Notes: generated from the sequence alone by a model not told the origin. A stretch of 64,000 nt of DNA from an uncultured Acidobacteriota bacterium (GCA_963847975.1 CAWKBU010000031.1:280291-344290), one strand, 5' to 3'. Shown: positions 1 to 64,000, counted from the stretch's first letter. A program made the numbers and translations.

Positions 1-1404
1 GACTGCACCTGCCGCCAGGCCGTGTCGTAGCCGATGGTCACGCTCGTCGGCGTGAAGACGCCATCGGTATCGGCAAACCGTGAGTAGTTGGTGGTCGTCG
101 TGCCGACGACGATGGCGTTGGGGATGGTGACTTCCTCGCCGCGGATGGTCTTGACCTTGGTCGACAGCACACCGACGTGGTTCACCGTGCCTTCGACGTC
201 GCCGATGCGGACGAAGTCGCCGAGCCGCAGCGAGCGCGAGTAGGTGATCATGAAGCTGCTCATCATCTGGTTGACGAGCCCGCTCGATCCGAGCGACATG
301 ACCAGACCGATGAACACGCTCGCGCCCTTGAACGCGTCGGTCCCGCTCCCCGGCAGGTAGGGATAGGCCATCACAGCCGCGAAGATCCAGAGAAGCGTGG
401 CGACCAGGCGGCGCGTGGGTTGCGCGGTGTCCGGGTGCAGCCACGGGACTTCGACGGTGCCCTGCTCGACCGCCTTGAAGAACAGGCGCATCAGCCGGAT
501 GAAGAAGCGGGCGATCAGGAAAATGAGCAGGACGCGTGAAGAGCGACGGCACCGCGTGCGACCATGTCCAGCGCGAGCCCCGATATCCGCGCCAGCATGA
601 ACTCCCGCATCGACTCGCCCCACGGGCGGGTGTACGGAAACCGTCGCAGCGTGAAGGTGACGGCGGAGTAGACGACGAACACGCTGAGTGCGAGGGCGAC
701 AATCGAGACGAAGGTGCGCCAGAACTCGAAGAGGCGCGACGCCCGGAGGACCTCGAGCGGCCCCGCACCCACCCGCGACACCTGCTGTTCAGCGGCGGCG
801 ATCAATCGCCGGGCAATACGGTGGTGCCCGCGGATGATCGCCAGCAGCAGGATGGCGGCGAGGCCGAGCACCAGCAGCGATTGCAGAGCGGCCCAGGCGA
901 GGAGCGTCGGCGTGCGCGCTTCGACGGCCTCGGCGAGCGCCACCTTGATCCTGGCCGACTGTGGCCTCGGCGGCGCCGTCGAGCGTTTCGCCCGCGGCCT
1001 CGTCGACGTCCAGCGGGGTCAGCACCAGCACGGGTCGCGTGCCGAAGCTGATGATGCGGCCGGCCTCGAACGGTCCGCACCTCCACCGGCCCGTCGACAC
1101 GCTGATCCACCATGTCTTCGAGGGCCCGTGCCGCCGCGCTGGCGCGCTCGGCCGGACTGCGGCCCATGACGCGGGCGCGCAGCACGGCAATCGGCCGATT
1201 GCTGAGCATCACGGTCGCGGTCTCGCTTGCCGGCTCGATGCCGACGCTGACGCTCACCGGCGGCGCGGCGGGCGGCGTCGCACCTGGCGCCGGGGGCGTC
1301 ACCTGGGTCGCGCCCACGGCCGGAACGAGGATCAGGCAGAGGGTGGCCAGGAGAACGGCCCGGATTCGCAATCGCAACGCAAGGCTTCGGCAGTCGGTCG
1401 GCAC
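1..1404 (-). pseudogene. MscS-family mechanosensitive channel with signal peptide and periplasmic N-domain; frame broken about 3 times (pseudogene or indel error); 3' end runs off the window
   Basis: Minus-strand fragments 802..1404, 789..1190, 515..943 and an unlisted open frame 1..~540 read on as one protein. It starts with MPTDCRSLALRLRIRAVLLATLCLILVPAVGA, then TM helices, then the MscS core GSSGLVNQMMSSFMITYSRSLRLGDFVRIGDVEGTVNHVGVLSTKVKTIRGEEVTIPN. Frame switches lie near 1080, 945 and 540. Confidence 0.7.
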
Positions 1405-1443
1405 AGAGTGGCTCCAGAAGAAGTCAGAGGTCGTAGGCGAATT

Positions 1444-2322
1444 CTAGTCGATGGCGGCTTTACGCCCTGCCGCGGCGCCGTCCAGCAGGAAGACCGCGGC
1501 CCGACCGGCGCGCGCCGCGCGCGCCACCGGCAGCCGCGATGTCCGATTCGTGAGCGCCTCGCCCACGACGGCGGCCTTCGCGGCACCAAAAGCGGCGATG
1601 TAAATCTCGGCACCGGCGAGCGCGGCGAGCGTCAGCGTCAAGCGGGCGGGCGGCGGTTTGGGCGAATCGGTCACCGCCACGACGTGCCGCGTTTTCTCCT
1701 CCAACGCCCGATGCCCCGGAAAGAGCGAGCACACGTGGCCGTCTGGGCCGACGCCGAGCAGCACCACATCGAATCGGGGAGGCGTGCCGATGGCCTGCCT
1801 GAGATCGGTTTGATACTGCCGGGCCGCGGCGTACAGATCAGCGGCATCCGCCTCCATGCGGTGAATGCGCGCCCGATCGATGGCCACGCGGCGCAGCAGC
1901 AGCTCGTCGGCCACGCGATAGTTGGAGTCCTGATCGTCGGGTCGAACGGCGCGCTCGTCGCTCCAAAAGACCTCCACCATCGTCCAGTCGATCGCCGCCA
2001 GCGCCAGAACGGGAAAGAAGATCTCAGCCACGGACCCGCCGGGCAGGACGAGCGAGAGAGCACGGCCTGTCGCCTGCACGCGTCGAGCTGTGCTCACCAG
2101 ACGCGCGGCAAAGGTCCGGGCGAGCTCGGCCGGCGTGGCAACAATGGTTTCGATGGGCAAGCCGAAGCAATGTACTACGGGAAGCTCGTCGTTAAAGGCA
2201 AGAAGCCCTTTCTTTCTCCGACGAGCTTGACGCCTGAGGCACGCGCGCCTAAAGTCCGTCCACCCTGCGAATATTTCTCTCAGCGGCAGCCGTCTCGCCG
2301 CCTGGTGGCGGATGCTTTTCAT
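1444..2322 (-). CDS. pgl: 6-phosphogluconolactonase
   Basis: 292-aa ORF with LVLPGGSVAEIFFPVLA and FDVVLLGVGPDGHVCSLFPGH blocks typical of Pgl. The first ~55 aa are Arg-rich, so the true start is probably internal (an in-frame TTG at 2160 precedes PIETIVATPAELARTF). Confidence 0.85.
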   Translation of the reverse strand: MKSIRHQAARRLPLREIFAGWTDFRRACLRRQARRRKKGLLAFNDELPVVHCFGLPIETIVATPAELARTFAARLVSTARRVQATGRALSLVLPGGSVAEIFFPVLALAAIDWTMVEVFWSDERAVRPDDQDSNYRVADELLLRRVAIDRARIHRMEADAADLYAAARQYQTDLRQAIGTPPRFDVVLLGVGPDGHVCSLFPGHRALEEKTRHVVAVTDSPKPPPARLTLTLAALAGAEIYIAAFGAAKAAVVGEALTNRTSRLPVARAARAGRAAVFLLDGAAAGRKAAID

Positions 2323-2384
2323 CCGTCACGACGGGAGAGTTGTGCGCGCGGGCCCGCCCGCCGCCGAGGGAAAGGGTGGCGTGT

Positions 2385-4156
2385 ATGTCCCTTCCCAATC
2401 GTCGGTCAGTTCCGCTGCGGCCTCTCGTACCTCTCCGCCGGCGTTCTCCTCGCCAGCATCTCGGCGTGGGCGATCGTCACCGATCTCGCCAACGTCGCGA
2501 ACGTCCACGCCCCGGCCGGTGAGCACATCGACCAGGACGATCTCAATGCCCTGCCGGTCAGCGAGCGCTTCATCGAAGCGTTCGAGATCGGAGACGAGCT
2601 CTTTGCCACCGCGTTCAACGCCGTCGACGGCGGCGGCGCCAACGTCGGGCGCGGCCAGCGCTATACGCGTGTGCCGCGCGCCGACCTGCGCGGCCGGGGC
2701 GAGTGGTTCACCCATACGCCGATCAGGGTCACCGGCCCCAATGCGGGCGGCTGCTTCGAGTGTCACGAACAGCCGTTCGAAGACGGCGCCGGCACCGCCG
2801 CGCTCAACGTCCATCGCGATCCATTCCGCACGGGCAGGTCGGCCAGTTCATCGAGCGCAACACGCCGCACGTCTTCGCGCCCGGCGCGATCCAGCGGCTC
2901 GCCGAGGAGATGACCGACGGCCTCACCGCCGATCAGACGCGGCTGGTCGACGACGTGTGCCGGAACGGCGGCACCCGCATCGGTGACCCTCGAGACCAAG
3001 GGCGTCGAACTTCGGCACGCTCAGCGCGACGCGCACGAGTCGCACGCCGTGTCAGGTCACCTACAACACCGACGCGGTCCGCGGCGTCGACTTTCAGCCC
3101 TCGGTCGACAATCCAGCCGCTCCGGTCGTGCTCATCGTCCGGCCGTTCCAATGGAAAGGGAGCGTGCCGTTTCTCCGCGACTTCAACCGTGGCGCGGCGC
3201 ACAACGAGCTCGGCATGCAGGCGGTCGAGGTCAGCGGCGACAACGTCGACGGCGACGCTGACGGCGTCGCCAACGAGCTGACGATCGGCGACATCACGGC
3301 CCTCACCGTCTACATGGCGGCGCAGCCGCGGCCGACGACGCTGCTCGAGCTGAACGCGCTCGGCCTCCTCGAGCCCGCGCTCACCAGCGCGCAGGTGAGC
3401 CGCATCAACCGCGGACGCCAGGTCTTCGGCGAGATCGGCTGCGCCTCCTGCCACATCCCGCAGCTGACGCTCAACACGCCGGTCTTCAGCGAACCCAGCC
3501 AGAACGCGGCCTACCGTGACGGCACGACGTTCCCGGCCGGGCAGCCCACCGCCAACGTCCTCGACCCGCGCAATCCGATCACCTTCGATCTGACGCGCGA
3601 CCAGCCGGACAACATCATCCGGAACGCCACCGGCGGCATCCGCGCGCGGCTCGGCTCCTTCACCCAGCGCGACCGCGACGGCAGGACCGTGGTGGAGCTC
3701 TACGGCGACTTGAAGCGCCACGCGATGGGATCGCGCCTCGCCGAGCCGGTCAACGAAATCGCCGGAGACGACGTGACGCCCATCCCCATCTCCCCGCGCA
3801 ACCGGCACACACCGGACACGTTCCTGACCGAGAACCTCTGGGGCGTCGGGTCAACGGCGCCTTATCTGCACGATGGGCGCGCGACGACGCTGGCCGAGGC
3901 GATCATCGAGCACGCGGCGTCGAACAGCGACACCGCCAGCGAGGCGCGCGGGGCGCGCGCCGCGTACCTGGCGCGCTCGCTATCCGACCGGCAGGCGGTC
4001 ATCGCGTTCCTCGAGAACCTGGTGCTGTTCAAGCTCGAGGAAGAGGAAGAGGCGCCGGCGGGTGCGGCCGCCGCGCTGCAATCGCTCACCGGCCTGTCCT
4101 CGCCGCGTCAGCGCGTCAAGATCGCGCCGAAAGGATTCAGGATCCGGCTCGAGTAG
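2385..4156 (+). pseudogene. Di-haem cytochrome c peroxidase-like protein (DUF1111 / thiol oxidoreductase type), frame-disrupted
   Basis: Two CxxCH motifs (CFECH ~2750, CASCH ~3440). Conserved text runs across the frames of ORFs 961..2913, 2703..3281, 2983..3261 and 3128..4156, with switches near 2820, 2985 and 3010. The start is uncertain: ATG 2385 lies in yet another frame. Confidence 0.65.
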
Positions 4157-4307
4157 AGCCACGGTAGCAACACGGACAACACGGACGGCAAAGGCGGAGT
4201 GAGAGGCCGAACCCTCCGCTCTGGCGAGCGTTTGCCTGGGAGGACGCCAGCGGAGAATACTCACTACTGAATCACGATGCCATCCGAGCTGCCGCGCGGA
4301 ACGAGGA

Positions 4308-5215
4308 ATGCCTGGGCGGCTGATCGATGTCGGCGGGTTTCGGCTCCATTTGCACTGCTCGGGGTCGGGCCGACCGGCAGTGGTGATGGACTCGGCGCTC
4401 GCCGGCTCATCGATCAGCTGGTCGCTCATCCAGCCGGACGTGTCGCGGCTGACGCGCGCCTGCAGCTACGACCGCGCCGGGTTCGGCTGGAGCGACGCGG
4501 GCCCGATGCCGCGCACGGCCGGACGGGTCGCCGACGAACTGCGTGTGCTCCTCGAGCGTGGCGGCGTCGCCCCGCCGTTCGTGCTCGTCGGGCATTCGTT
4601 CGGCGGCCTGGTCATGCGCATCTTCGCGGCCAGATACCGGAGCGATGTCTCGGGCCTCGTGCTGGTCGATCCCGCGCATCCCGAGGACTGGGTGACGCCG
4701 GCGCCAAAGGAGCAGATCAGGATCGACCGCGGCATCAAGCTGTGCCGCAGCGGCGCGACCGCGGCGCGGTTCGGCGCGGCCCGACTCGTCAGTGGCCTCG
4801 TGACGTTCGGCCTGTTCGGCGTCGCCCGCGGTCTCGCCACCGTCGTCAGTCGCGGCGGACTGTCGCGCGAGGACGAGGGCGTCCTGGCGCCGGTACTGGA
4901 AGCTGCCACCCGAGACGCGCAGGCCGTTGCGGCAGTTCTGGACGCAAGAGAAGTTCTTCGCTGCGCTCGGCAGCCAGATCGCCTCCATCTCGACGAGCGC
5001 AGCCGAGACGCTCGCGGCCGCCGCCGGCGGCTACGGCGACCTGCCGCTCGTCACCATCTCCTCCACCGATCCCGGCGACTACCGGCTGCGCCAGCAGGAG
5101 GCACTCGCCCGCCTGTCGGCGCCGCGGCCGCCACGTCGTCGCCTCGAAGAGCGGGCACTGGATTCCCCTGGACCAGCCGCAGGTCGTCATCGACGCAATC
5201 CGGGAGGTGCTCTGA
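4308..5215 (+). pseudogene. Alpha/beta-fold hydrolase, frame-disrupted
   Basis: The N-terminal ~195 aa of ORF 4308..5228 carry the VGHSFGG nucleophile elbow (~4593). The text continues in the frame of 4927..5253 (WKLPPETRRPLRQFWTQEKFF...) and ends in the frame of 4277..5215 (...SGHWIPLDQPQVVIDAIREVL). Switches lie near 4895 and 5125. Confidence 0.7.
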
Positions 5216-8272: not shown

Positions 8273-8333
8273 GGGCAAAATGATACTACGGCCAACGCTT
8301 TCGGCCGGTCGACCGTCTAACGCGCGAGACGCC

Positions 8334-8921
8334 ATGATTGACGACTTCAGGGCCGCGCTGCGCTCACTCCGCAACTCGCCCACTTTCACGCTCGTCGCCC
8401 TCACAGTATTGGCCCTCGGCATCGGCGCCGGCACGGCCATCTTCTCGGTCGTCGACGCCGTCGTCCTGCGGGGACTCCCGTTTGACGAGCACGACCGGCT
8501 GGCGGTCGTCCTCGAGCACGATACGCGGCGGCCGATCACGTTCGGCGGCGGTACAGACTACGCCCCAGATGTATCTCGACTGGCGAACGATGCAGGAATC
8601 GTTCGACGGGCTCGCGGCGGTCGGCGGCGGATCGTTCCGCCTGCGGACCGAGGGGAGGCAACGAGACAGAACGTGGTGGCGATGATGCTCCTGAGGGCGA
8701 CCGTGTTGATGGCGGCCGGCCTGGCAATTGGAGCGGGCGCCGCCTGGCCGCTGAGCTCGCTCCTGCAGGTGCAGACGTTCCTTTTCCAGGTCGAGCCGAC
8801 CAACCTTGCGGTCTATGGGCTCGCCCTCGGGACCCTGGCGGCAGCCGGGCTCCTCGCGAGCGCCGTCCCGGCGTTCCGGGCCGCCAGCATCGACCCGCTG
8901 GTGGCGCTAAGGCACGAATAA
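8334..8921 (+). pseudogene. Remnant of an ADOP/MacB-type ABC permease (FtsX family) with a frameshift and a large internal deletion
   Basis: N-terminus MIDDFRAALRSLRNSPTFTLVALTVLALGIGAGTAIFSVVDAVVLRGLPF, then the other frame gives TTPQMYLDWRTMQESFDGLAAVGGGSFRLRTEG. The text then jumps straight to the C-terminal TM and tail LFQVEPTNLAVYGLALGTLAAAGLLASAVPAFRAASIDPLVALRHE. The total is ~196 codons, against ~800 in the full-length paralogue at 58842..61299. Confidence 0.7.
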
Positions 8922-19515: not shown

Positions 19516-19530
19516 AGCAACCTCTGGTAA

Positions 19531-20394: not shown

Positions 20395-20807
20395 CCTCAG
20401 CCGCCGGTACGAAGTTCAGCGCGACACCGTTGATGCAGTAGCGGAGACCCGTCGGCGGTGGACCGTCCTCGAAGACGTGGCCAAGATGTCCGCCGCAGCG
20501 GTTGCAGTGGACCTCGGTGCGCCGCATGAACAGACTGTCGTCGTCGGTCGGTTCCGACCGCGCCCGGGAGCGGCGCGAAGAAGCTCGGCCAGCCGGTGCC
20601 GCTCTCGAACTTGCGATCGGCCACAAAGAGCGGGTTTCCGCAGGCAGCACACGAAAACGCGCCCGCACGATGCTCTTTGAGGAGCGCGCACGACCCCGGG
20701 CGCTCCGTGCCGTGACGGCGCAGCACCTGATACTGCTCCGGCGTCAGGATCTTCCGCCACTCTTCGTCAGTCTTCACGACTTCGAACGCTTTGGTTGTCT
20801 CGGCCAT
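20387..20807 (-). pseudogene. msrB: Peptide-methionine (R)-S-oxide reductase, one apparent frameshift
   Basis: ORF 20397..20807 (…[34 protein letters not shown]) continues in ORF 20387..20668 (…[43 protein letters not shown]). The switch lies near 20545. Confidence 0.8.
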
Positions 20808-20818
20808 TGCTCGCCTTC

Positions 20819-22430
20819 CTACTGCTTGAATACTTTACCGACATCAAGACCGAACTGCGGCTTGTCGCGGGTGCCGCCAATCTTGAGCGGCACGAGCGCG
20901 CCCGCGCCCTTCTTGCGGAAGACGGGATCCACGGCCTTCAGAAAGAACCCCTTCAAGCCGCCGCCGGCCGCCTCCGAAATCGTCGCGTCCATCCGCAGCG
21001 TGCCCTCGAAGGCGATCGCTTCGCTGCGCAGTCCGTACGAGCCATGCAGCCGCACAAGCGCTCCTGGCAAGCCAAACGACAGATCCGAGAACGAGAGCGA
21101 CCCGTCCTTGAGCGCGAACCGACCGCTCAAGTCTGACACGACATTCTCGGCCGCCTGTTGCGGATCGCGGCCGCGCGCGCGGTGGCTCATCCCCGACAGT
21201 TTCTTCTGCACCCCCGCGTCGGTGAACTTCGCGGCATCCACATCGAAGACGCCGGCGAGCAGCAGCTTCTCGACCACGTCGCGATCCCCGGGCGGCAACT
21301 CGAAGTCCGTCTTCAGGCCGAGGCGGCCCACGAGCAGCGGCTTGTCGCCCTTGACCGCCAGGCGCAGCACATCCTCGATCCGCCCTTCCTGGATGTGCAC
21401 GTTCAATTTGACCGTGCGGCCCTTGACGCCCTTCGTGCCGGTCACCGCGCCTTTCGCGGTCAGCGACGTCTGCAGAAACTGCGCGTTGACTTCATTCAGG
21501 TAGGTGTCGCCGTCGGTGCCATCGACGACGGCCTCGAAGCTCGTGCTGAGCGCCACCGGCTGACGGCTGATGTCGAGGTGGAAGTCGGGCACGTGCGTCT
21601 CGCCCTTGACGGCGATGCGCGCCAGCTCGCCCTGGAACGATCCCTTCGAATCGAGCGTCCCGCCGATGCCCTTGATGGTATCGAGATCGGCCTTCTGGAA
21701 GTTGTAGTACCCCGCGAGTGGGGTCGCACCCGGACTCCCCTTCTGCCACGGTCCAAACGTGCCGGCCGTCTCAATCTGACCTTTCGGCAGCGGGTTGGTC
21801 AGGATGGCGGTAAACGGCATCTTCTCGGCAATGCCCGAGCGACCGCATCGTCAGGGCCTGGATCGCGAACTCCTTCGGCAGCTTACCCTCGCGCCGCGGG
21901 ATGATCCGCAGGAGCGCGCCGTCGGCGACGAGCTCGTCGACGATGATCGGTGATTCGCGACGATCGCCCGCTGCCTGGGTGGGCTCCGCTGGGGGCGCCG
22001 TTTCCGCCGCGTCGCGGGCTTTGGTGGCCTCGCCGATCGGATTGCCGTTCTTCTTCAATCCGCCCGGTGGGATGTTGACGACCAGCTTCTCGAGCGTCAC
22101 GTGCTTGAAACGGCGTGGGCGACGCAGCAGGTCGACGATGCCGCAGTGGACGGTGAAGCTTTCGATCTCGATGAGCGGAGGAACCGACGGGTCCGTCACG
22201 TTTCGGAGCCGGAGCGTCAGACCCGATCCCTGGACGGTGACCGCCGGAAAGAGATCGACGCTGAAGGCCTTCAGCTCGACGTGGCTGTTGAGCCGATCTT
22301 CGAGCGTCGCGACGACGAGTTTGCGCAGCGGCTCGGTGCGCGAGCCGGCGGCAGCGGCGATGGTCAGGACGACCAGCGTGCCCACGACCGCGGCCGCCAC
22401 CCACGCCGCGGTTTTGAGTTTCATGGGCAT
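20819..22430 (-). pseudogene. AsmA-family outer-membrane biogenesis protein, one frame break
   Basis: ORF 21771..22430 (N-terminal anchor MPMKLKTAAWVAAAVVGTLVVLTIAAAA) joins ORF 20819..21820 near 21835 (…EFAIQALTMRSLG | AEKMPFTAILTNPLPKGQIETAG…). The C-terminus is KIGGTRDKPQFGLD. Confidence 0.65.
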
Positions 22431-40864: not shown

Positions 40865-40865
40865 T
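40788..40865 (+). repeat. Direct repeat copy A (78 bp): the 3' end plus stop of the SurA-like gene
   Basis: TGGTCAACTACCTGGCGCGCACCCTGGTCGAATCGAAGGGCGCCGTGCCGAGCCTGCTGCCGACACCGCCGAAGTAGT. It is 77/78 identical to 46635-46712. Confidence 0.95.
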
Positions 40866-41432: not shown

Positions 41433-44301
41433 TCACTTCCTGGCTCCGGCACCCGGCGGCAGGAAATTCTCGAGCACCCAGGTTTCCGTCTGGTATGACT
41501 TGCCGACGACGTACGCCAACTGCTTGCCATCCGGGCTCAACCGAATCTTTCCCAGCTGGCCATCGACGGCGGCGCTCAGGTCGACGTCGAGTTTCCTCGG
41601 TGCGCTCGCCGTTCAGAGGTATCAGCCACAGCTCCCCGCCGCGAGTGGGCGCGGCTGCGCGGCGTGGCGAACTTGCGGACGATGACGGCGTCGCTGGTCG
41701 GCGTCCAGGGCATCGGTATGACATCGAATTCGCCGTCTGACAGCCGGAATATCTCGCGAGATTCGCCGCCATCGACGGCGCGGATCACGACGGACTGGAG
41801 CAAGTCCGCCGGACGCTCGTAGGAAGCGATCCATCGTCCATCAGGGGACACGCTGATGGGTCCCAGATTGCGCCAGGCGCGTCTGGCGCCGGGCTGATCG
41901 TTCGCTGCCTGCCGAGCGTCGTGTCCCATTCGTGAATGGCCCCGTCATTCGGACTGAAAGTAGAGCCGTTTCCCATCAGGCGACCAGAACGGGCCTTGAA
42001 ACGTGAGCGGGATTGGATAGGCGATCGGCGAAACGTCGCCGGTGTTGACATCGACGCGAAAGAGGCCGCAACGCCCCTTCAAGTCGACGGCGGTGAACGC
42101 CAGCGATCGACCGTCAGGCGCCCAGCTCAGTCCCTGGGCCCAGGCCAGCTTCAATGGCGGCAGCTCCCGAAGTTCTCGGTCGTGACGACCGAGTAGATCG
42201 CGATGGTTCCCGCGAGATCGTCTCCAGCGCGCCTGGATACGTAGGCGAGCTGCTGTGCCATCGGGCGACCATGCCGGCTCGAGGTTCGTGCCGGGAACCG
42301 ACTGGGGCGGTCGAGCCGGCGCGCCGACGCGCCTGCCCGAGCTCAAATCGATGCGAGACGAGCTCGATGTCGACTTCGTTCGCTGGCGTCCTGAAATACA
42401 GCGAGCCGGCCTTCGTCATGCCGACGGATCGGACGTTGCCGATACCAGCTTTCAACCGCTCCGGGATGCCAGGCGGCCCACCGGCTCGACACTGGCGCTG
42501 CCCAGAGATCCGTCGTGCCGCTCCTGTTGCTCGCGAACAAGAGATGGCTGCCATCCGGCGACCATCCCATCAACACGTCATTCGCCGCGCTGACGACGGC
42601 TGGAATGCGTTCGCCGCCATCAAGGGCCATCACGAAGATGTCTCGCTGCGACTCCGTGTCGCTTGCAGGGACGTCGAACGCGAAGGCTCGTCCGTCCGGT
42701 GAGAAAAAGGCCGTCGAACCGCGCCAGTCGATGGGTGTCAGGACGCGAAAGGATCCATCCTGCACGGCGACGAGGCCGATCTCGCCAGTTCCGTCGGCAC
42801 GCGACCTCTCAACGAGGATCCGATTGTCCATCGGGCGACCAATCCGCCGGCCGCAGCCGAACGTCGGGATCTGGATGACGCAGACAGCGGGCGCGATGCC
42901 CCGGTGCTTCCGGAGTTCAGCGGCCTGACTCGCAGCTCGCACTGCTGGAACGCGGCGCACCACTCGTAGGCAACCTGTGTCCCGTCCCGCGAAATTGCCG
43001 CGGACCGAGTCCCAGCCCGCCGGTTTCGCTCTGCCGGGTGCCACCGCCGCTGCGCGCCTGAAGCCAGGTCCTGGACGAAGGCACCGCCGACGAGGTAGCG
43101 GCCATCCTCCGAGACACTCGTGGAGCCCCGATTCAGGATCCTCCGCAGCGACAGAATATCGGCAGACGTGGACGCCGGGCCGGCAGGCGGCGCCAGCGTG
43201 ACTTCGGCCGTATCGCCAGAGCGCGAACGACACCGCCACGACGGTCAGCACGACCGCGGCCGTCGTCAGCGCGCGCCGCGCCGTCCATGCGCGCCCGCTG
43301 GCGCCCTGCAGCGCCTGGGCGACGGCGGCGACGTCCTGAAATCGGTCGGCTGGATTGGGCGCCAGGCATCGATCGACGATCCGCGACAGGCGCGCAGGGA
43401 CGTCCGGCCGCAGTTCTCGCACGGCGGCGGCGCTCGCCGGCGGCGTGGGCCTGGCGCAAGTCGTCGATCGTGCGGCCGACGAGCGGGAACGATCCGGTGA
43501 GCAGATGGAACAGCACCACGCCGAGGCTGTAGATGTCGCTCTGCGGCGATGCCGGATGCTTCGCGAGCACTTCCGGCGCCAGATAGAGCGGCGTGCCGGC
43601 GAGGTCGCCGGCCGTGGCCGCACCGAGTTCCGACGCGTCGCTCCCGGCGCCGAAATCCGCGAGCACGATGCGACCATCGGCGGCGCGCATGACGTTCTGC
43701 CGCCTTCACATCGTGGTGCACGACGCCGGCGCGATGCACGGCGTCGAGCGCGGCGCACAAGTCCAGACCGATGCTCGCGACAGTCTGACGGATCGAACGG
43801 GCCTTTCGGCACGAGCTCGTCCTCGAGCGTCGGGCCGTCGATGAGGCTCATCCACACGCCGACCTGGCCGCCGATCCGCTCGGCGCCGTAGACCGTCACG
43901 ACATTCGGATGGCTGACGCGAGCCAGCAGGCGCGCTTCCGCGATGACGGCGGTGGCTTCGGCGGGCTGCTGGCGCCGCAGGATCTTCAGCGCGACCGTCC
44001 GATCGAGCCGAGGGTCGTGTGCCCGATAGACGTCGCCGAAGGTGCCTCGACCGATGTGTTCGAGGACGGTCAAGGGGCCCCATTCGGCCGGCAGGACATC
44101 AAGCGACGGGCTCGCGACACGCTCGGTCGCGTCAGTGGGTGGCGCCGCTGTGAACGCGCGCCACCTGCTCGAGAACCCGCAGCTCGTCGACGAGCGCCGG
44201 GTCCGTCGATGCAGGCGAGCTTCCGCCCGAGCGCGGTCCCAATCGACGGCCGCGCGATCGGCAATCGCTCGCGCGACGTCAGCGCGCCAGTCGTCGCTCA
44301 T
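41433..44301 (-). pseudogene. Ser/Thr protein kinase - TM - TolB-like (PD40/WD40-like) beta-propeller sensor, heavily frame-disrupted
   Basis: Kinase text is spread over three frames (LEHIGRGTFGDVYRAHD…ALKIL; VHRAGVVHHDVKA; IVLADFGAGS…GTPLYLAPEV…SDIYSLGVVLFHLLTG). A TM segment (ALTTAAVVLTVVAVSFALW) follows. PD40-like repeats (FSPDGRAFAF, WSPDGSHLLF, WAPDGRSLAF, WSPDGKRLYF, VSPDGRWIAS, LSPDGKQLAY) lie in at least 5 more ORF fragments down to the TGA at 41433. Confidence 0.7.
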
Positions 44302-44893
44302 TCTTCATCGCCTCCGCGAGCCGGACCAGCGCGCGCGAGACGGCCATGCGCGCGGCGTTGGCCGTGGGTCGTCCTGTCGCCTCGGCCACGTCCGCGTAGC
44401 TGAGATCCAGCTCCAGCCGCGCCACGACGAGCTCGCGATCGTCCTCGGACAGCCGTGCGAGCGCGGCATCGTAGCGTTCGATCGCTTCCGCGCCGATCGC
44501 CGCCTCGAGCGGCGACTGGTTCGAATCAGCCAGCTCCGGATCCAGTTCCGTGGCGGCCGGCCGGCGGCCCGCGCGCTTCAGCTCGTTCCGGATGCGGTTG
44601 AGGATCGACTGGCGCAGATACGCCTGCAGCGCGCCATGGCCGCGATGTTCGAATCCGTCGACATGTTTGAACGTCTCGAGCAGCGTGTCCTGCACGAGAT
44701 CCTGCGTGTCGGCGAGATCCCGCGCCCACGCCGGCAGGCGCCCGCGCGCCCAGCGACGGAGGCTGGGCAGGTATCGCGCGAACAGCTCGTCGAGGGCGGA
44801 CCTGTCGCCTTCGCGCGCCCTGGTGAGCAGGGTCAGCGTCGAGGGCCAGGCCGGTTGCGGTGCAGCCACGTGAGCCGATTCTACCGCCGGCAT
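44279..44893 (-). CDS. ECF-type sigma-70 family RNA polymerase sigma factor
   Basis: Intact 204 aa. Region 2 reads DLVQDTLLETFKHVDGFE…GALQAYLRQSILNRIRNELKR. Region 4 reads LSEDDRELVVARLELDLSYADVAEATGRPTANAARMAVSRALVRL. Its 3' end overlaps the kinase start by 23 nt. Confidence 0.85.
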   Translation of the reverse strand: MPAVESAHVAAPQPAWPSTLTLLTRAREGDRSALDELFARYLPSLRRWARGRLPAWARDLADTQDLVQDTLLETFKHVDGFEHRGHGALQAYLRQSILNRIRNELKRAGRRPAATELDPELADSNQSPLEAAIGAEAIERYDAALARLSEDDRELVVARLELDLSYADVAEATGRPTANAARMAVSRALVRLAEAMKNERRLAR

Positions 44894-44928
44894 GTGCGGT
44901 TTCGGTCCGGCGGTTGTTTCACTCGTTC

Positions 44929-46626: not shown

Positions 46627-46634
46627 GTCAGCGC

Positions 46635-46712
46635 TGGTCAACTACCTGGCGCGCAACCTGGTCGAATCGAAGGGCGCCGTGCCGAGCCTGCTGCCGACAC
46701 CGCCGAAGTAGT
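46635..46712 (+). repeat. Direct repeat copy B (78 bp), non-coding duplicate of the SurA-like 3' end
   Basis: It differs from copy A only at one base (GCGCAACC versus GCGCACCC). It starts 9 nt after the stop of the esterase pseudogene. Confidence 0.95.
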
Positions 46713-48335: not shown

Positions 48336-49670
48336 TCAGGCGGCATCTAGCCCGAGTCTCTTCTGCATCTCCTCGAGAGGCACGCCTTTCGTCTCGGGCA
48401 CCATCAGCGCCACCCACAGCAGCTGGATCGCCATCATCACCGTAAAGAAGAGGAACACCAGCCCAGGGGCGAACGCGGTCACCATAATCGGGAAGAACGT
48501 CGTCAGCAGCGCCGCGAAGATCCAGTGCGTGAAGCTGCCAAGAGCCTGCCCCTCGGCGCGATAGCGGGTCGGGAAGATCTCGGAGATGAGCACCCAGATC
48601 ACCGCGCCCTGCCCGACCGCATGGGCGGCGATGAAGGCGAAGATACAAGCCGGGACGATCGCGTAGTGCCCGGTGAAGAACGCCCAGGAGGTCAGGCCGA
48701 GCGAGGCGATGTAACCGAACGAGCCGATCTGAAGCAGCGTGCGCCGGCCGAGCCGATCGATCAACCACAGCCCGACGAACGTGAAGATCAGGTTCGTGAC
48801 GCCGATGCCGATCGACTGCAGCAGCGCGGCCTGGGCGCCGAGCCCAGCCATCTCGAAGATACGCGGCGCAAAATACAGCACGGCATTGATACCCGAGAGC
48901 TGGTTGAAGAACGCCACGAGGAAGGCGAGCAGTATCGGCACCCGGAGCCGGCGCGTCCAGAACTTCGCCGCCACCTCCCGGTCGCTGGCCGAAGCTCGAA
49001 TCACGTTCGCGGTCAGCCTCGATCTCGGCCGTGGACGCCTCCGGGCTCGATCCGGCGCAGCACCTGCGACGCCGGAGGCGCGGTCGCCCTTCCGCGCAAT
49101 CAGCCAGCGAGGACTCTCGGGAATGGCAAAGCAAAGGACGGTGTAAATCAGCGCGGGGACCGCCTCCACGCCGAGCATCCAGCGCCAGGCGTGCTCGCCG
49201 ATGCCCGCGAGCAGAGCGTTCGACACGAACGCGGCGAGGATGCCGAACACGATATTGAACTGGAACAGGCCCGCGAGCCGGCCGCGCCATGCCGGCGGCG
49301 CGATCTCCGCGATGTAGAGCGGCGCCGCGACCGTTGACATGCCGACGCCGAGTCCGCCGATGAAGCGCGCGACGATGAAGGTATAGACGCCCGTGGCGAG
49401 GCCCGACCAGACGGCCGAAACGAAATACAAGATGCCGATCCAGACAAGGGTTGGGCGCCGTCCGAGCCGGTCGGTCGGCCAGCCGCCAACGAGTGAGCCG
49501 AGCACGGTGCCGTAAAGCGCCGAGGCCATCGCCACGCCGTGCATCGTCGGGCTGAGCGACCACAACGCCTGAATCGTCTGCTCGGCGCCGGAGATGACGA
49601 CGGTATCGAACCCGAACAGAAAACCCGCGAGCGCGGAGGTGATCGACCAGAAGAAGATGCTGCGTTTCAT
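48336..49670 (-). CDS. Sugar-porter-family MFS transporter
   Basis: 444 aa with FGFDTVVISGA, GWPTDRLGRR, PESPRWL and PETKG signature blocks. Confidence 0.85.
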   Translation of the reverse strand: MKRSIFFWSITSALAGFLFGFDTVVISGAEQTIQALWSLSPTMHGVAMASALYGTVLGSLVGGWPTDRLGRRPTLVWIGILYFVSAVWSGLATGVYTFIVARFIGGLGVGMSTVAAPLYIAEIAPPAWRGRLAGLFQFNIVFGILAAFVSNALLAGIGEHAWRWMLGVEAVPALIYTVLCFAIPESPRWLIARKGDRASGVAGAAPDRARRRPRPRSRLTANVIRASASDREVAAKFWTRRLRVPILLAFLVAFFNQLSGINAVLYFAPRIFEMAGLGAQAALLQSIGIGVTNLIFTFVGLWLIDRLGRRTLLQIGSFGYIASLGLTSWAFFTGHYAIVPACIFAFIAAHAVGQGAVIWVLISEIFPTRYRAEGQALGSFTHWIFAALLTTFFPIMVTAFAPGLVFLFFTVMMAIQLLWVALMVPETKGVPLEEMQKRLGLDAA

Positions 49671-50270: not shown

Positions 50271-51711
50271 CTAGACTTTGAAGTCTTCAGGCTTGAACGA
50301 CACGCGGCACTTCGCCTCGATCGCCTCGTTGACCTTGAGGACGCTGACCGCGCTCTCGTAGCCGATTTCCGCCGGGCAGTTGAGTTTCGCCTTGCCGCGC
50401 ACGGCGTCGAAGAAGTTCTGCAGATGCGGCTGGTGATAGGGGTCGCGCAGGACGACCGGCACCGTGTGCTGATCGGGAGCGACCGACTCGCGCACGTCCG
50501 CCACGGCGCCAGATTCGCTCTTGGCCTTGGCCTCCTGCTCTTTGGGAGCGCTCACGTACCCCTTCTGGATCCACTCGTCCCAGGCGGGCGCGTTCGGGTC
50601 GCGGTACAGCTGGCCGGCGTAGTTCAGTTCTGACTCGGAGATGAGCAGCGTCCCCTGGTCGCCCATGAAGGTTTCGAAGTAGCCCTGGCTGCCGTTGGTC
50701 GTCTGCGTCTGGTAGTACGCCTTCGCCGGGCCGAGCGCGGTGTCGTAGTCGTAGACGACCATGACCGTGTCGTACCACTCGTGCGTCTTCGGATCGTGGT
50801 AGAGCAATCCGCCGCTCGCCATCACGTGGGAGGGGTTCGCGCCGAGGAACCAGTTGTAGATGTCGATCTGATGGGAGCCAAGATCGACGATCGGCCCGCC
50901 GCCGAGGCCCTTGTACCAGCGCCAGTTGCGGAACTGGGGCATGTCCTTGAAGCCGGTACTGTTTCAGCTGCGCCGCCGGAATCGCGTAGCGTTCGGGCGC
51001 GCCGAGATCGGGCGACACCGCGCGGTTCCACTGCCCGTTGACGGTGACGATCCGGCCGAGCAGCTTCGCCTCGCCGAGCAGCTTCTCGTAGCAGTGGATG
51101 TAGCGCGGGTTCGAGCGGCGCTGGTGGCCGATCTGCAGGAGCTTGCCGGTCTCGCGGGCGGCAGCCACCATGCTGCGCGCGCCCTCGAGCGTATTCGACA
51201 TCTCTTTCTCGCAGTACACGTGCTTGCCGGCCTTGAGGCAGTCGATCGTGTGCCGCGCGTGCCAGAAGTCGGGCGTGGCGATGATGACGGCGTCGAGTGC
51301 CTTCTCCTTGTCGAGCATCTCGCGGTAGTCGTCGTAGCCGTTGACCTCGTGCTTGAACCGCTTGAGGGTGTTGACGGCGCGCCGCTGGTTGTACTCCGTC
51401 CAGATGTCGCACACCGCCCGGAAGCGCAGTCCGGGGATGCGCAACATCGCTTCCGTCAGCACCTGGCCCTGCGCCCCGGCGCCGAGAAGAGCGACGTTGA
51501 TCTCCTGCAGGTCGGCTGGCGCCACCGGCGGCGCGGACGCCGCCTCCGCCCGTCCCTGCTGGTAGCGGCGCTGTCTGTTCCACGCGTAGCCGAAAAGCCC
51601 CAGCGCCGGGACCGTGGACAGGCCCATGAGCAGATCACGCCGATCGAGCTTTCTCGGGCCGTCGGCTGCAGACTGCGGCTTGCCTTTGCTCTTGTCGTCC
51701 TCGCCAGCCAT
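50271..51711 (-). pseudogene. TAT-signal Gfo/Idh/MocA-family oxidoreductase, one frame break
   Basis: ORF 50287..51711 gives the N-half (DRRDLLMGLSTVPALG twin-Arg signal, VALLGAGAQG Rossmann, KHVYCEKEM). It continues in ORF 50271..50942 (MPQFRNWRWYKGLGGGPIVDLGSHQIDI…). The switch lies near 50950. Confidence 0.75.
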
Positions 51712-51905
51712 CGCTCGTCTCCTGCTCTCACATCCGACGGGGCTTCGCCCCTCGGACTCCCCTCACGCTCTCTCGCGCGCCGCTTCGTCGCGCGTTCCGT
51801 TCGCGTGGCTCACTTCCGCCTCCGCTAAAGCTACGCGAGATCTCGCCGGCGCGCTCGGCGCGAAGGCGGGACGCTCTCGCTCGTTCGCTCTGTATGCGAT
51901 CGCTT

Positions 51906-58841: not shown

Positions 58842-61299
58842 TCATTCCGATCGCAGCGCCATCACGGGGTCGATGCGCGACGCCCGCATCGCGGGCACAT
58901 AGCCGGCAAGCCCGGCGACAATCGCGACAACCGCGGCGACCCCGCCGAACGTCACTGGGTCCGACGAGACAACACCGAAGAGCAAGCCCTGGATCGCCTT
59001 CGCGCCCATCCATGCAGCAGGAAGGCCGATGGCCAGGCCGATCGCCGCGAGGGTCATCGTCTGCGTCAGAATCCGACGTTGCATGGCCAGTGGGGCGGCG
59101 CCAAGTGCCACGCGAATGCCGATTTCCCGCGTTCGCAAGCTCACCGAGTACAGATGACGGCATAGAGTCCCAGCGCCGCCACAAGCAGTCCGAAGCCGGC
59201 GAATCCGGCAAGTAACCGCACGATGCTTCGCCTGGTGAATACCGAGCGATCCACGAGTTGCTCCATTGTTCGGAACTCGACTGCCGGCAGCCCCGGATCG
59301 GCACGCTTCAACGCCGCCCGTATGCCGGGGATCAGGCTCGCTGGAGGGACCACGCTCCTCACCACGAGATCAACCGTCTGGTAGTCGCCGGTCTGTCGGA
59401 GCAGCATGTACATTTCCTGACCGGTGTCCCGTTCGAGCGCGAAATAGCGAACGTCGTTGACGATGCCGACTACGCGATAGTCCCGGCCGGAGGCGCGAAG
59501 CACGCGACCCAGCGGGTTCTCATCCGGCCACAAGGCGCGCCCCAACGCTTCGTTGATGACGACGACCCGTTCGGACGACGAGTGATCATCGGCGGTGAAG
59601 CCGCGGCCGGCTTTCATGGCGATACGCATCGCGGAGAAATACCGGTCGTCGATCATGCGAACGAGCGGGTTCGCGCGCGCGTCAGGATCGGTCGGCGATC
59701 TGTGGCTGAGACGGTCCATCCGCGCCACCCGAAGTTGTCGCCGAGCGGCAGCGCGTCGGTCAGGCCAACGGTTTCGATGCCTGGCACCGAGCGAACGTGT
59801 TGAAGGACCGCATCGAAATAGGCGTTTCGCGCCTCGCGCGTCGGATGCTCGAGGCGTGACGGGTCCACCCGCAACGAGATCACGTTCTCGGACGTGAATC
59901 CCGGATCGACGTCGAGGACGCGACTGAGACTCCGCGTGAGCAGGCCGGCGCCGGTCAGGAGGACCGAGACCAGCACGATTTCCGTCACGACGATCGCGCG
60001 GCGCATCCAGCCGCCTCCGCCGGTCGCGCCGCGGCCGCTGCCCTTCAGCGCGTCCTGCGGCGCGGATCCCGAGGCTTGAAGCGCCGGCAGCACGCCGAAA
60101 CAGATCCCTGTCAGCATCGCCACGGATGCGACGAACACCATCACCAGTCCATCCACACGGACGTCCCGGAGAAGTGGAATGCTGGCGCCCTCGAGATGCG
60201 CGATCAGGCTCGTGCCGCCGAACGCCAATGCCAATCCCAACGCCGCGCCACCGCAGGAGAGCGCCAGGCTTTCGACGAGCAGCTGACGGACCAAACGCTT
60301 GCGCCCGGCGCCGAGCGCCATCCGGAGCGCCATTTCCTTGTGCCGCGCCGACGCCCGTGCCAGCAGCAGGTTCGAGATGTTCGCCGAGACCAGGAGCATC
60401 AGGAACCCGACCGCGGCCGCCAGCACCGCAAGCGTGCCGTGAAACCGCCCGCTGATGCGGTCCTGCAGCGGACTCAGGTTCGGACGGAACACGTTTCGGC
60501 GCCGACCGGGTTCGACGTCGGGTGCGGTCCTGCTGATGTGGTCGACGGCCATGGCCGTTTCGGTGGCGGCGGTCCTCAGATCGATCCCTGGTTTCAATCG
60601 GCCGATCACGGCCAGCGTGTTACCCCTTCGATTCGTCTCGGGACTCAGCGGAAATGGCAGGAACAGATCGGCGGGGCGTCCGGGTGAAAACGTGCCGCCG
60701 AAGTCGAACGACGGTGGCAGCACGCCGACAATCGTCACCGGTGCGCCATCGAGGGTAATCGACGCGCCGATCACATCGGCCTTCGCGTCCAAGCGGCGCT
60801 GCCAGAACGCGTAGCTCAGGATCGCTGTTCTCGGTGCGCCCCAGAGGCATTCCTCGGCGGTGAAGTCTCGTCCCAGCCAGGGACGTACGCCCAGCAGCGG
60901 AAAGAAGCCCTCCGTCACAGGCACACCGGTGACGCGCTCCGCTTCGCCGGTGCCGGTCAGCCTGATGTCGCCGACGCCATAGAACGGCGAGAACCCTGCG
61001 AGGCCAACCAGCGACTGGCTCTGCTGCCGCAGATCGACGAGATGTCCGACTTGAACGGCCTGCCTCGACAGGTTCTCCGACGGTCCGTTCGCGACCCAGA
61101 CCAGGCGTCCCGGGTCATCGAACGGCAGCGGCCGAAGCCACAGCGCGTTGACGACGCTGAAGACGATCGTGCTGGCGCCAACGCCAACCCCAATGATCAG
61201 GATGGCGAACGTCGTCAACGCGGCGTCGCGCCGCAAGGTTCGCACGGCATATCGCAGATCGCGCACCAGCGTCTCGACGAGGGACAGGATGGTTTGCAT
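58842..61299 (-). pseudogene. Full-length ADOP-type ABC permease (duplicated FtsX/MacB_PCD architecture), two frame breaks
   Basis: ORFs 59653..61299 (MQTILSLVETLVRDLRYAVRTLRRDAALTTFAILIIGVGVGAST…), 59141..59728 and 58842..59144 (…YVPAMRASRIDPVMALRSE) read consecutively. Switches lie near 59700 and 59143. Confidence 0.75.
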
Positions 61300-61729
61300 C
61301 GACTCGCAGCTCTGACTGAGAGACGCTGCTTAGACGAAAGGCGCCACTCGATTTGGTTGCAAGGAGGCGGGGAGCCAAGACAGAGAGGCGGGTCCCCAGC
61401 ATGAGCAGCGAGTATCGATCAGAACATTACCAGCTGCCATGTCGCGTTGAATGTGTCGAAATCCGAACCCTCGCCGTGTCGTTGTGCCCGTGCTGTAGGC
61501 GAAACTCCTGATTTTACTGCTGACGATCGGGATCGACAGCGCGGCGCCGTAGCGGATTGCGCTGGAAGAATCTCAGGGTTCAGCACGCCATCGACACGGT
61601 CACGCCGCTGCGGACCATGTCGCGTTGACGGCAAGCCACGAGCGCCTTGGAGCGAATAGATTGCGTGGCCCTGAAGGGCCATGACGCCTCTCTGCCGTTG
61701 GCCGCACGCGCGGGATACACGAATGATCG

Positions 61730-62290: not shown

Positions 62291-62304
62291 AACAGGCAAC
62301 AGCT

Positions 62305-62788
62305 TCACCGGGGTTTCTTTGCGGGATCGTCTGCCGGATTGACGTAATTGATCGCGAATGGCCCGATGCATGCGCTTGAACGACGGTGTTCCCATCGGCC
62401 CACGCGTGGTGCACCATCCTTGCCGGCAGCAGCGCGTACGCGCCGCCACCGAGGGCGGTGGCCGACGCTCGGCGCCGTCTTCGCCGATACCGATCCGGAA
62501 CGTACCACTGAGCACCGTCAGGTGTTCGTCGACGGGATGCCAGTGTGGCGGGATGCGAGACTTGGTCGAGTAGCGAAAGCGGATCACGAAGGGCGATCCC
62601 GCCACGGCCGGATCACCAGAGATGACGGCCATCTCTGCGCCTGGCCGGAGTGCTTTCCACTGAACGGCCGCGGCTGCGACGATAGTGTGGTGGCGAGTAG
62701 TTGGCGGCGGCTGGGCGCGGCCGACTGACATCGACAACAAGCACCCAACGAAGAGCGCGGCGGCACCGCAGCGAATGTCTGGAGCCAT
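62305..62788 (-). pseudogene. Secreted cupin-domain protein, frame-disrupted
   Basis: The signal MAPDIRCGAAALFVGCLLSMSVGRA is followed by the cupin block IPPHWHPVDEHLTVLSGTF (ORF 62021..62788). The C-terminus GPFAINYVNPADDPAKKPR lies in ORF 62305..62508. Confidence 0.5.
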
Positions 62789-62905
62789 GCTGGGATGGTA
62801 ACAGAGCCCGTCCCTGGGCTGTCATGGCGTGCAGCCGCTGCAACCCCACACGACGACCTCACCGCGCTGATTCGATGTAGCATTGCCGCACCGAAGGAGC
62901 CCGAC

Positions 62906-63970
62906 ATGAAGCGCACGGTGTTGACGATGGTGCTGGTGGCTGCAGTGGTAGTGATCGGGCGGGCGTCGCAGGCGCCTCCAAACCTATCGGGCACGTGGCG
63001 TCCACAGAATCCGAATAGCGGACAGGCGAACCCGTTCGAGTTCACCATCACGCAGGCGGCCGACAGCGTGACCATCCGCACGCCGCTCAGCAATCCCGAG
63101 TCGGTGACGCTCAAACTGAACGCCGAGACACGCACGCCGATCAGTGGCCGGGGCGGCTCCACCGCCACGGCGGTTTCGAACGCCGCCTGGGAAGGGGCGA
63201 AGCTGGTGGTGACGACGACGATCACCGGCGGACCCGGCGGCGCCACCAGCTCCGCGAAGCAGGTCTACTCTCTGACCGGCGACACCCTGACACTCGAGGC
63301 GAGCAACTCGCTTCCCGATGGCTCGATGAGCCAGGTGCGGACCGCGACGTACGTGAAGTACACGCCGGTGCCGATGCCGGCTCCGCCAAGCCGCCCGGTC
63401 GAATCGGGCTACACGAGTCTCTTCAACGGCAAGGATCTGACGGGCTGGAAGGCGAGCGCGAATCCCGATTCATTCAAGGTCGAGAACGGCGCCATCATCG
63501 CCAACGCCGCGGGTCAGGCCTCGCACCTGTTCTACGACGGGGCCGTCGGCAACCATTCATTCACGAACTTCGATTTGCGGCTCGACGTGCTCACACGTTA
63601 TCGATCGAACGGCGGCGTCTACGTCATGACCGAGTTCCAGCCGCAGGGGTTCCCCGGGAAGGGCTTCGAGATCCAAGTCAACAACAGCCACAGCGATCGC
63701 ATCCGCACTGGCAGCCTGTACCACATCGTCGATCTATCGAACATCCCGGGCAAAGACGACGAGTGGATACCAATGGAGATCAAGGCTCAGGGGAACACGA
63801 TTACGATCACGGTGAAGGGGCAGGAAGTCGTGCGCTGGACGCAGCCGGCCGACTGGCAAAGCAACTACGACACAGCCAGCCGCAAGATCGCTCCCGGTAC
63901 GATCGCGTTTCAGTCACACGATACGTACAGCGTGACTGCCTACTCGAACATCCGGATCAAGCTGAACTAG
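62906..63970 (+). CDS. Secreted DUF1080 (3-keto-disaccharide hydrolase-like) domain protein with an N-terminal beta-barrel-like domain
   Basis: ATG 62906 follows AAGGAG. The signal is MKRTVLTMVLVAAVVVIG. The DUF1080 text is YTSLFNGKDLTGWK…FKVENGAI…NSGVY-like…FEIQV.N…TGSLY…IAFQSHD…. Confidence 0.8.
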   Translation: MKRTVLTMVLVAAVVVIGRASQAPPNLSGTWRPQNPNSGQANPFEFTITQAADSVTIRTPLSNPESVTLKLNAETRTPISGRGGSTATAVSNAAWEGAKLVVTTTITGGPGGATSSAKQVYSLTGDTLTLEASNSLPDGSMSQVRTATYVKYTPVPMPAPPSRPVESGYTSLFNGKDLTGWKASANPDSFKVENGAIIANAAGQASHLFYDGAVGNHSFTNFDLRLDVLTRYRSNGGVYVMTEFQPQGFPGKGFEIQVNNSHSDRIRTGSLYHIVDLSNIPGKDDEWIPMEIKAQGNTITITVKGQEVVRWTQPADWQSNYDTASRKIAPGTIAFQSHDTYSVTAYSNIRIKLN

Positions 63971-64000
63971 ACAGGTCAAGACAGCCACTCGTTTCAGAAG

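Follow-up and report, generated by a model that had tools for sequence, protein, structure and literature searches.

Does a stretch of bacterial DNA in which gene after gene is broken by frameshifts record the decay of those genes, or errors in the sequence itself? The question is raised by 64,000 nucleotides from an uncultured Acidobacteriota bacterium (the window, meaning the whole stretch at its full length; positions 1 to 64,000), in which we count about 53 frame-breaking events at 17 loci, with a dense patch in a Ser/Thr kinase gene. Accepted uncritically, the frameshifts would enter an annotation as about 17 pseudogenes and suggest that the genome of an uncultured soil Acidobacteriota lineage is decaying; our evidence points instead to artefacts. 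We consider it probable (roughly 0.8) that residual consensus errors of long-read metagenome assembly, and not true mutations of the bacterium, account for the frameshifts: wherever polarity could be assigned the lesions occur in the window only, sister assemblies behave alike, the private indels of the kinase are insertions only and the kinase bears no signature of decay. A preliminary description made from the sequence alone had left the choice between very uneven quality and real accessory-gene decay; on the same grounds the first is borne out, and the second is not upheld for the 1-nt lesions.

Frame-breaking events and their polarity

The window has a G+C content of 66% and a strong codon-position signal (GC1/2/3 = 0.66/0.51/0.86). 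To follow the coding frame we used a Viterbi model of codon usage, with five intact open reading frames (ORFs) as its training set. Frame segments were stitched and scanned against Pfam, a switch being checked by a profile collinear across the junction and, as a second check, by tblastn with intact orthologues. One profile alignment spans the frame junctions in msrB (SelR positions 1-116), the kinase, an esterase gene and a full-length ADOP permease gene. The tblastn searches confirm the switches in an MscS-type channel gene (three), a di-haem oxidoreductase gene (DHOR, three), an alpha/beta hydrolase gene (two), a GT-C glycosyltransferase gene, msrB, an AsmA-like gene, an FAD-dependent oxidoreductase gene, a DinB-family gene (two) and the kinase. 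Programmed ribosomal frameshifting or recoding is not indicated, orthologues reading straight through in one frame at all sites.

With these three means (Viterbi, Pfam and tblastn) the catalogue in the preliminary description proves accurate: all the loci that it named are confirmed. Its counts hold for MscS (three), the alpha/beta hydrolase (two), GT-C, msrB and the AsmA-like gene (one each), DinB (two), the second Gfo oxidoreductase and an ‘Agl23-like’ gene (PMT/GT-C; one each), GntR (one plus a TGA), ADOP (two), the cupin/SnoaL region and two ADOP remnants. It had given the kinase at least 8 switches, and at least 8 net frame switches are present there, made up of about 25 indel events at the DNA level; three lesions are confirmed in the di-haem oxidoreductase, for which three to four had been proposed. 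The esterase lesion is likewise present, with only two switches found where about four had been reported. Lesions at three places had been missed, namely delT 33659 in the FAD oxidoreductase, the insertions at 49014-49065 in an MFS transporter and a 4-nt insertion at 30492 (ins and del denote the insertion and deletion of the base named). CopC/CopD, an epimerase with its neighbour, and CoA-binding/metY were considered as further frameshifts and rejected; they are adjacent genes.

Polarity was established with closely related contigs. The first, L001 (ENA contig_1071), was found by an exact YchF protein match and is 96.2% identical to the window over 24.2-40.9 kb. Further sister contigs, about 95-98% identical, were reached as members of the Gfo protein cluster or by an exact SPFH match (L003/L088, L083, L084/L087 and L089), and L085 supplied a second intact allele of the kinase. 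The sister contigs are ENA assemblies of one accession series, and their names all take the contig_N form used by Flye; the GTDB relatives at a greater distance are ‘MFD...bin’ metagenome-assembled genomes (MAGs), also with contig_N names. For the broken genes that close sister contigs cover, the AsmA-like gene excepted, there are intact orthologues at 96-98% DNA identity: the kinase, DinB and FAD oxidoreductase genes are intact in L001, and the ADOP, PMT, Gfo2 (the second Gfo oxidoreductase) and ApbE genes in L084. At 1-8.6 kb and 61.4-64 kb the comparators are only about 80% identical (L002, L004, L052 and L086); the MscS, DHOR, alpha/beta hydrolase and cupin/SnoaL lesions, for which near-identical comparators are lacking, are thus confirmed at the protein level and carry no polarity.

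Seven coding lesions fall where three sister loci can be compared, and all seven are private to the window, against 3 of 3 (14979 insT, 20550 insG, 21833 insG, 49014 insC, 55539 delC, 59152 delG and 59693 delT). Among the polarised sites none is shared with a relative in a manner resembling inheritance, and the shared, inherited lesions expected of pseudogenes are therefore lacking in the window.

Three features expected of consensus error are found: lesions covered by three sister loci are private to one assembly, assemblies of the same series are lesioned elsewhere, and combining four assemblies removes the lesions in the block examined. Over window positions 8.7-29.5 kb we counted 154 private indels in L088 (about 75 of them in the GT-C region), 45 in L089 and 21 in L087. 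Over a 7.95-kb coding block the numbers are 16 in L003, 20 in L083 (12 in ApbE), 3 in L084 and 2 in the window. The private indels of the sisters, those of L085 included, are 1-nt events, mostly outside homopolymers, and lie in other genes than those of the window. They are over-dispersed (variance/mean 2.3 and 4.2) and biased to insertions (11:5, 18:2 and 98:56), and their density correlates with that of private substitutions (r = 0.39 and 0.46). Gene calls in the sister contigs are accordingly fragmented, at HtrA, deoxyhypusine synthase (DS), ApbE and MFS among them. A majority consensus of four assemblies restores open frames in all seven genes of the block (MFS, DoxX, Gfo2, ApbE, Gfo, PMT and F5/8). 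One dense stretch in L088 (13270-15620, equivalent to window 13.7-15.7 kb) takes in the GT-C gene, in which we count 59 indel columns and 187 substitutions private to that contig, the latter distributed evenly over the codon positions (58/56/73); the adjoining GT2 gene looks normal.

The sequence context of the lesions is unusual. Homopolymers, the context that the preliminary description expected, do not explain them: runs of at least 3 hold 10.4% of all bases and just 2 of about 46 polarised events. Insertions outnumber deletions by about 34:12 among the polarised events. The classical Nanopore homopolymer pattern, with errors in runs and mostly deletions, is thus not observed.

Clustering of the lesions is real and is essentially one patch, the kinase, on a near-Poisson background. 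In 1-kb bins the 53 events have a dispersion index of 4.28 (P = 2e-27), and the kinase holds 25 events where 2.3 are expected (P = 6e-18). With the kinase excluded 28 events remain (0.46 per kb) with a dispersion of 1.35 (P = 0.04), and a simulation of gap clustering is not significant (P = 0.5). The strong clustering noted previously therefore stands for the window as a whole and not outside the kinase. Nor is a preference for accessory, sensor or exported functions, as had been proposed, needed to explain the near-Poisson background; msrB, the metX stop, the FAD oxidoreductase, Gfo and the MFS transporter are struck alike. The accompanying argument, that a uniform error process would rarely leave several long ORFs clean, relied in part on post-hoc selection, and one of those ORFs (29075..31705) is in truth metX running into metY.

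The kinase patch

The patch and the gene at its edge are as follows.

41436..44176, minus strand: ECF-sigma-linked Ser/Thr kinase with a Tricorn/PD40 propeller; about 25 indels relative to L001 (21 insertions, 4 deletions)
44282..44893, minus strand: ECF sigma factor, lesion-free; 204 aa, 95% identical to L001 without gaps, marking the upstream (5′) edge of the patch

Positions 2-253 of the Pkinase profile span four frame fragments of the window gene. Elsewhere the kinase is intact, with 906 aa in L001 and 867 aa in L085, and none of the indels relative to L001 lies in a homopolymer of at least 3. A three-way alignment of the window with these two intact alleles gives 18 window-private insertion columns and no deletion column; the private insertions are absent from both intact alleles.

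The substitutions show the pattern of a gene under constraint. The 87 window-private substitutions fall 22/15/50 on codon positions 1/2/3, that is 57% at position 3, and the corresponding shares on the two intact branches are 60% and 54%. Weak-to-strong changes (W>S, 40) exceed strong-to-weak changes (S>W, 23), so AT-biased neutral drift is absent. When the private insertions are taken out, the restored frame has 906 codons without a stop and is 89% identical in protein to L001; from 200 substitutions placed at random 5.4 stops would be expected (P = 0.0045). The even spread over codon positions, the excess of deletions and the build-up of nonsense codons that would mark a pseudogene are therefore not seen in the kinase; as regards nonsense codons GntR is the exception among the loci, with one TGA.

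Over the kinase region the window and L001 are 91.6% identical in DNA. We observed that the N-terminal part of the window kinase has 95-96% amino acid identity to the L085 allele (P0262) and 88-92% to L001, and the C-terminal part 86% and 73%, respectively. The window kinase is thus partly nearer to L085/P0262 than to L001, and its extra divergence from L001 is therefore allelic and not a sign of decay. The kinase thus exists as distinct allelic lineages in the population. We also considered ‘SNP doubling’, in which both alleles at a variable site are kept as two bases. It was not adopted; with L001 and L085 as stand-in alleles it fits about 3-4 of 17 kinase insertions and is suggestive only.

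Other lesioned loci and kilobase-scale differences

The gene content of the window is typical of Acidobacteriota (Vicinamibacterales-like), with ADOP permeases, a Sortilin/BNR protein, an ECF sigma factor with its Ser/Thr kinase and Gfo/Idh/MocA oxidoreductases; the best named homologues of its proteins are ‘Vicinamibacterales bacterium’ MAG proteins. Scans of the window for tRNA genes and against Rfam gave no match. Outside the kinase the lesioned loci are these.

3..1362, minus strand: MscS-type mechanosensitive channel (Viterbi; Pfam MS_channel_2nd), four frame segments with switches near 545, 960 and 1070
2398..4153, plus strand: di-haem oxidoreductase (DHOR/DUF1111, PF06537), with a 1-nt deletion near 2831-2839, insA 2979 and a 1-nt insertion at 3007-3009
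4248..5212, plus strand: alpha/beta hydrolase, two frame switches at about 4897 and about 5119
13899..15630, minus strand: GT-C family glycosyltransferase, insT 14979, window-private against 3/3 sister loci (L087, L088, L089)
20399..20822, minus strand: msrB (SelR), insG 20550, window-private against 3/3 sister loci; the SelR match crosses the junction
20852..22409, minus strand: AsmA-like gene, insG 21833, window-private against 3/3 sister loci; the L004 orthologue aligns in two frames
29075..31705, minus strand: metX and metY as one 876-aa ORF, in which a 4-nt insertion at 30492 shifts the metX stop out of frame
32570..33789, plus strand: FAD-dependent oxidoreductase, delT 33659, the last 43 codons in another frame (tblastn of the intact 407-aa L001 protein)
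36174..36704, plus strand: DinB-family gene (Pfam DinB fragment), insA 36283 and delA 36434; intact with 176 aa in L001
45145..46626, plus strand: enterochelin-type esterase (Viterbi; Enterochelin_N and Esterase profiles), out of frame at 45926-46029 through delA 45929 and insC 46038
48336..49670, minus strand: MFS sugar transporter, about 17 codons out of frame; three insertions at 49014-49065 jointly restore the frame
50272..51712, minus strand: second Gfo/Idh/MocA oxidoreductase (Gfo2), insG 50956; intact with 479 aa in L084
54540..56176, minus strand: PMT_2/GT-C mannosyltransferase-like gene, delC 55539 in a C5 run, against 3/3 sister loci; intact with 544 aa in L084
58355..58803, minus strand: GntR-family regulator, a 1-nt deletion at 58643 (C3 run) and a CGA-to-TGA nonsense change near 58515; profile split over two frames
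58854..61302, minus strand: full-length ADOP permease (two MacB_PCD, two FtsX), three frames through delG 59152 and delT 59693, both against 3/3 sister loci; intact with 819 aa in L084
61900..62821, minus strand: Cupin_7 and SnoaL_2 fragments in several frames, inside a 1.7-kb stretch without sustained coding signal

In the first part of the window the intact 568-574-aa MscS orthologues of L004 and L052 align in alternating frames, and homopolymers of at least 3 are absent from the junction intervals. Intact 591-aa DHOR homologues (P0001 and P0258) align in three frames, and at the DNA level the same three uncompensated indels appear in the alignments with both L002 and L086. The hydrolase orthologues of L002, L014, L018 and L052 align in frames 3, 1 and 2; at 4892-4897 the window has one base more than four relatives. 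GT-C orthologues of 571-574 aa align in two frames, and msrB is intact (139-140 aa) in L087, L088 and L089. For the AsmA-like gene, split in all three sister loci, the comparators gave no intact close copy, and its insertion is polarised at the DNA level only.

In L001 metX and metY are separate genes (MetX, 400 aa; MetY, 438 aa), and the read-through in the window may be a genuine fusion, a sequence error or the normal variation of an intergenic spacer. The metX-metY spacer (30380-30500) is about 27 nt shorter in the window than in L001. The esterase is intact in L001 (563 aa); its indels are listed relative to L085, and their polarity rests on the reading frame because L085 is itself lesioned there. 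In the MFS gene a 60-nt stretch differs in each of four assemblies; its conserved loop is in frame in L083. Lengths at the Gfo2 site also differ without clean sharing (L084, 0; window, +1; L083, +1; L003, +2). In both stretches, MFS 49014-49065 and Gfo2 50956-50960, length varies in nearly every one of the four assemblies, and no motif was identified in them. From their sequences they look like context-dependent consensus hotspots.

The GntR frame is intact in L003 (136 aa) and in L083 (122 aa as called, with a later GTG start). In the window two private C>T substitutions five bases apart (about 58510-58525) change GATCGATCG to GATTGATTG, the first making CGA TGA. With its deletion and TGA, GntR may be a true pseudogene. 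The region 61304-63020 is non-coding by Viterbi, slightly lower in G+C, and matched only by the Cupin_7 and SnoaL_2 profile fragments; it may be decayed, foreign or error-laden.

Two motifs suggested by individual sites were tried and rejected. The GntR change raised the idea of GATC-linked miscalls; gains and losses of GATC are symmetric against four comparators. GGTACC (KpnI) was considered as a deletion hotspot from the Gfo2 and alpha/beta hydrolase sites; seven intact GGTACC sites are kept, and the hydrolase lesion is an insertion. A concentration of lesions at one motif, of the methylation type, was thus not found for GATC or GGTACC, other motifs not having been searched exhaustively.

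The window also differs from its relatives at the kilobase scale, where the relevant features are the following.

8319..8903, plus strand: ADOP (MacB_PCD/FtsX permease) remnant of about 110 N-terminal and about 83 C-terminal codons with two frame changes (Viterbi; weak FtsX C-terminal match, 38-120)
40785..40865, plus strand: 81-nt direct repeat, copy 1, the 3′ end of a SurA-like gene; 98% identical to copy 2 at 5847 nt spacing
46632..46712, plus strand: 81-nt direct repeat, copy 2, directly after the esterase stop codon
56994..57326, plus strand: junction of a 2.7-kb deletion in which PadR and most of an ADOP gene are lost; window 56994 to 57113 corresponds to L003 7323 to 4516

The 5.85-kb block between the repeats holds DUF3817, kinase, ECF sigma and esterase genes. 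It is missing from L003, and in L083 and L084 the kinase-sigma-esterase part is missing and DUF3817 remains; the repeat is single-copy in all three. L085 has the kinase, sigma and esterase genes together in a different neighbourhood. No integrase or recombinase was seen in the block. We considered whether the block is specific to the window and rejected this, as L001 has the order SurA-DUF3817-kinase-sigma-esterase with intact genes. At the 2.7-kb junction the last 60-75 or so ADOP codons remain at 57071-57298 (a C-terminal peptide in six-frame translation), and the PadR-ADOP segment is present in L003 and L084. Further PadR-ADOP pairs occur elsewhere in L003 and L085, and the copy number of the family varies between strains. 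From the ADOP remnant at 8319..8903 about 600 middle codons appear to have gone by structural deletion. Decay or gene flux is real at this scale only, namely in the remnants of ADOP genes, in the loss of PadR-ADOP and in the block of kinase, sigma and esterase genes, which some strains have and others lack; consensus error is an unlikely source of such kilobase-scale differences.

Two smaller structural features were noted. L001 has a VapB/PIN (VapBC) pair between the CoA-binding gene and copD (16352-16983), which the window lacks at the equivalent place (28346-28563). Long inverted repeats built of GAAGT-rich 13-nt units lie in the intergenic intervals 9349-9606, 19527-19603 and 23341-23569; the arms 9356-9433 and 9529-9606 are 78 nt long and 96% complementary. 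These elements resemble REP/MITE-like palindromes, and the sister assemblies differ there by many indels.

Origin of the lesions

On the reading that we favour, consensus error, the window probably derives from closely related soil Acidobacteriota strains (Vicinamibacterales-like) of one population, for which assemblies were made repeatedly and from separate samples. Judging from its relatives, the platform and pipeline of the window contig would be those of the Microflora Danica (MFD) long-read catalogue, in which Nanopore reads only were assembled with metaFlye and one Medaka round, without short-read polishing (PMC12313526). Two error regimes may then be distinguished. An isolated 1-nt background, with insertions about as frequent as deletions, would fall in any gene at about 0.2-0.5 per kb; dense patches of mainly non-homopolymer 1-nt insertions would strike the kinase here and other genes in the sister contigs. 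Such a patch might arise when a consensus is called from a poor pile-up of reads, either with few reads of the strain itself over a strain-variable segment or with reads of co-occurring strains, bearing a 10% divergent allele, piled onto one consensus.

One rival is real gene decay, in which the frameshifts are true mutations, the kinase being an older pseudogene and the other loci recent inactivations. The kinase does lie in a strain-variable block absent from three sister strains, and kilobase-scale losses (the ADOP remnants and the 2.7-kb PadR-ADOP deletion) are nearby. The dense zone also coincides with the borders of the kinase ORF, to within about 170 nt at the stop-codon end and about 100 nt at the start-codon end, its first indel 171 nt inside the 3′ end and its last coding indel 32 nt from the start. 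On either side the sigma gene (615 nt) and the DUF3817 gene (330 nt) are free of indels, as is the interval 44238-44925. This fit counts against our reading, since a purely technical patch need not respect gene borders; the patch may follow the extent of the divergent, strain-variable allele. Also unfavourable to consensus error are the non-homopolymer, insertion-biased character of the events, which is unlike the classical residual-error profile of Nanopore data, the nonsense substitution and deletion in GntR, which look more like real inactivation, and the GT-C patch of L088, which with its flat codon positions could be a true pseudogene, the alternative being a patch of very poor consensus. 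Bacterial pseudogenes, for their part, show deletion bias, and spontaneous mutation in bacteria produces substitutions about ten times as often as indels; more than 20 indels in a real pseudogene should be accompanied by many neutral substitutions, some stops and a bias to deletions. The kinase has 18 private insertion columns against none for deletions, a position-3 excess as in the intact alleles, no S>W excess and a stop-free restored frame, and at most about 10-30 neutral substitutions can hide beside its more than 20 indels. Moreover, lesions are never shared, each sister assembly having different broken genes, housekeeping ones such as ApbE, HtrA and DS included. Decay as a general explanation is therefore improbable. 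Were the kinase lesions real, an unusual process would have added single bases at non-repeat sites in one soil Vicinamibacterales strain, about 20 insertions with almost no neutral substitutions, within a setting of accessory-gene decay in a microdiverse soil population. Insertion-only decay of this kind would be unusual in itself, and we rate it as improbable.

A mixed origin, with the kinase patch and most isolated lesions errors and a minority true mutations (GntR, the PMT homopolymer deletion and cupin/SnoaL), is possible and in our judgement unlikely. It would account for the two private C>T changes making a TGA in GntR beside a deletion in a C3 run, for the C5-to-C4 change at 55539, a context in which real slippage also occurs, and for the region 61.3-63.0 kb with profile fragments and no sustained coding signal; real structural deletions moreover adjoin GntR. 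A long-read consensus without polishing would, however, contain substitution and homopolymer errors as well, these states recur in no second strain, and nothing sets them apart from the background error class. That the window is correct and the comparator contigs are wrong deserves almost no credence. The comparators do hold many errors of their own, but at each lesion the broken ORF and interrupted Pfam profile are those of the window, which stands alone against two to three independent assemblies, so that three-way polarity contradicts this idea; the intact frame is further supported by more distant relatives (about 80% identity).

If consensus error is the cause, several practical points follow. 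An open long ORF is no proof of integrity, as the 876-aa ‘metX-metY’ ORF and the MFS transporter both hide lesions. In long-read MAG catalogues errors would extend beyond homopolymers and could pile up in short patches with divergent strain alleles, in the very genes through which variation between strains is studied. Tallies of pseudogenes and pangenomes drawn from such MAGs would then lean towards accessory genes.

Among known systems, strain-variable islets bounded by direct repeats of a gene 3′ end resemble the block between the two 81-nt SurA-like 3′ ends, differing in that this block has no recognisable integrase or recombinase; the likeness concerns the setting of the patch and not the frameshifts. 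Bacterial pseudogenes and reductive decay offer a second parallel, in the several frameshifts per gene, the strain-variable accessory block and the neighbouring kilobase-scale deletions. Unlike them, the kinase is without deletion bias, relaxed codon positions, AT-biased substitutions and in-frame stops, and no lesion is common to strains. The residual indels of Nanopore-only genomes and metagenomes (R10.4, PMC9262707; the MFD long-read catalogue, PMC12313526) are alike in that 1-nt indels break conserved genes, the error load varies between contigs of the same population, a cross-assembly consensus removes the lesions and the pipeline, as judged here, would lack short-read polishing. They are unlike in that the published concern is with long homopolymers and low coverage, whereas the events in the window almost never lie in homopolymers and the dense patches are strongly insertion-biased, occurring in short stretches where the strain allele diverges (r = 0.39-0.46 between private substitutions and private indels).

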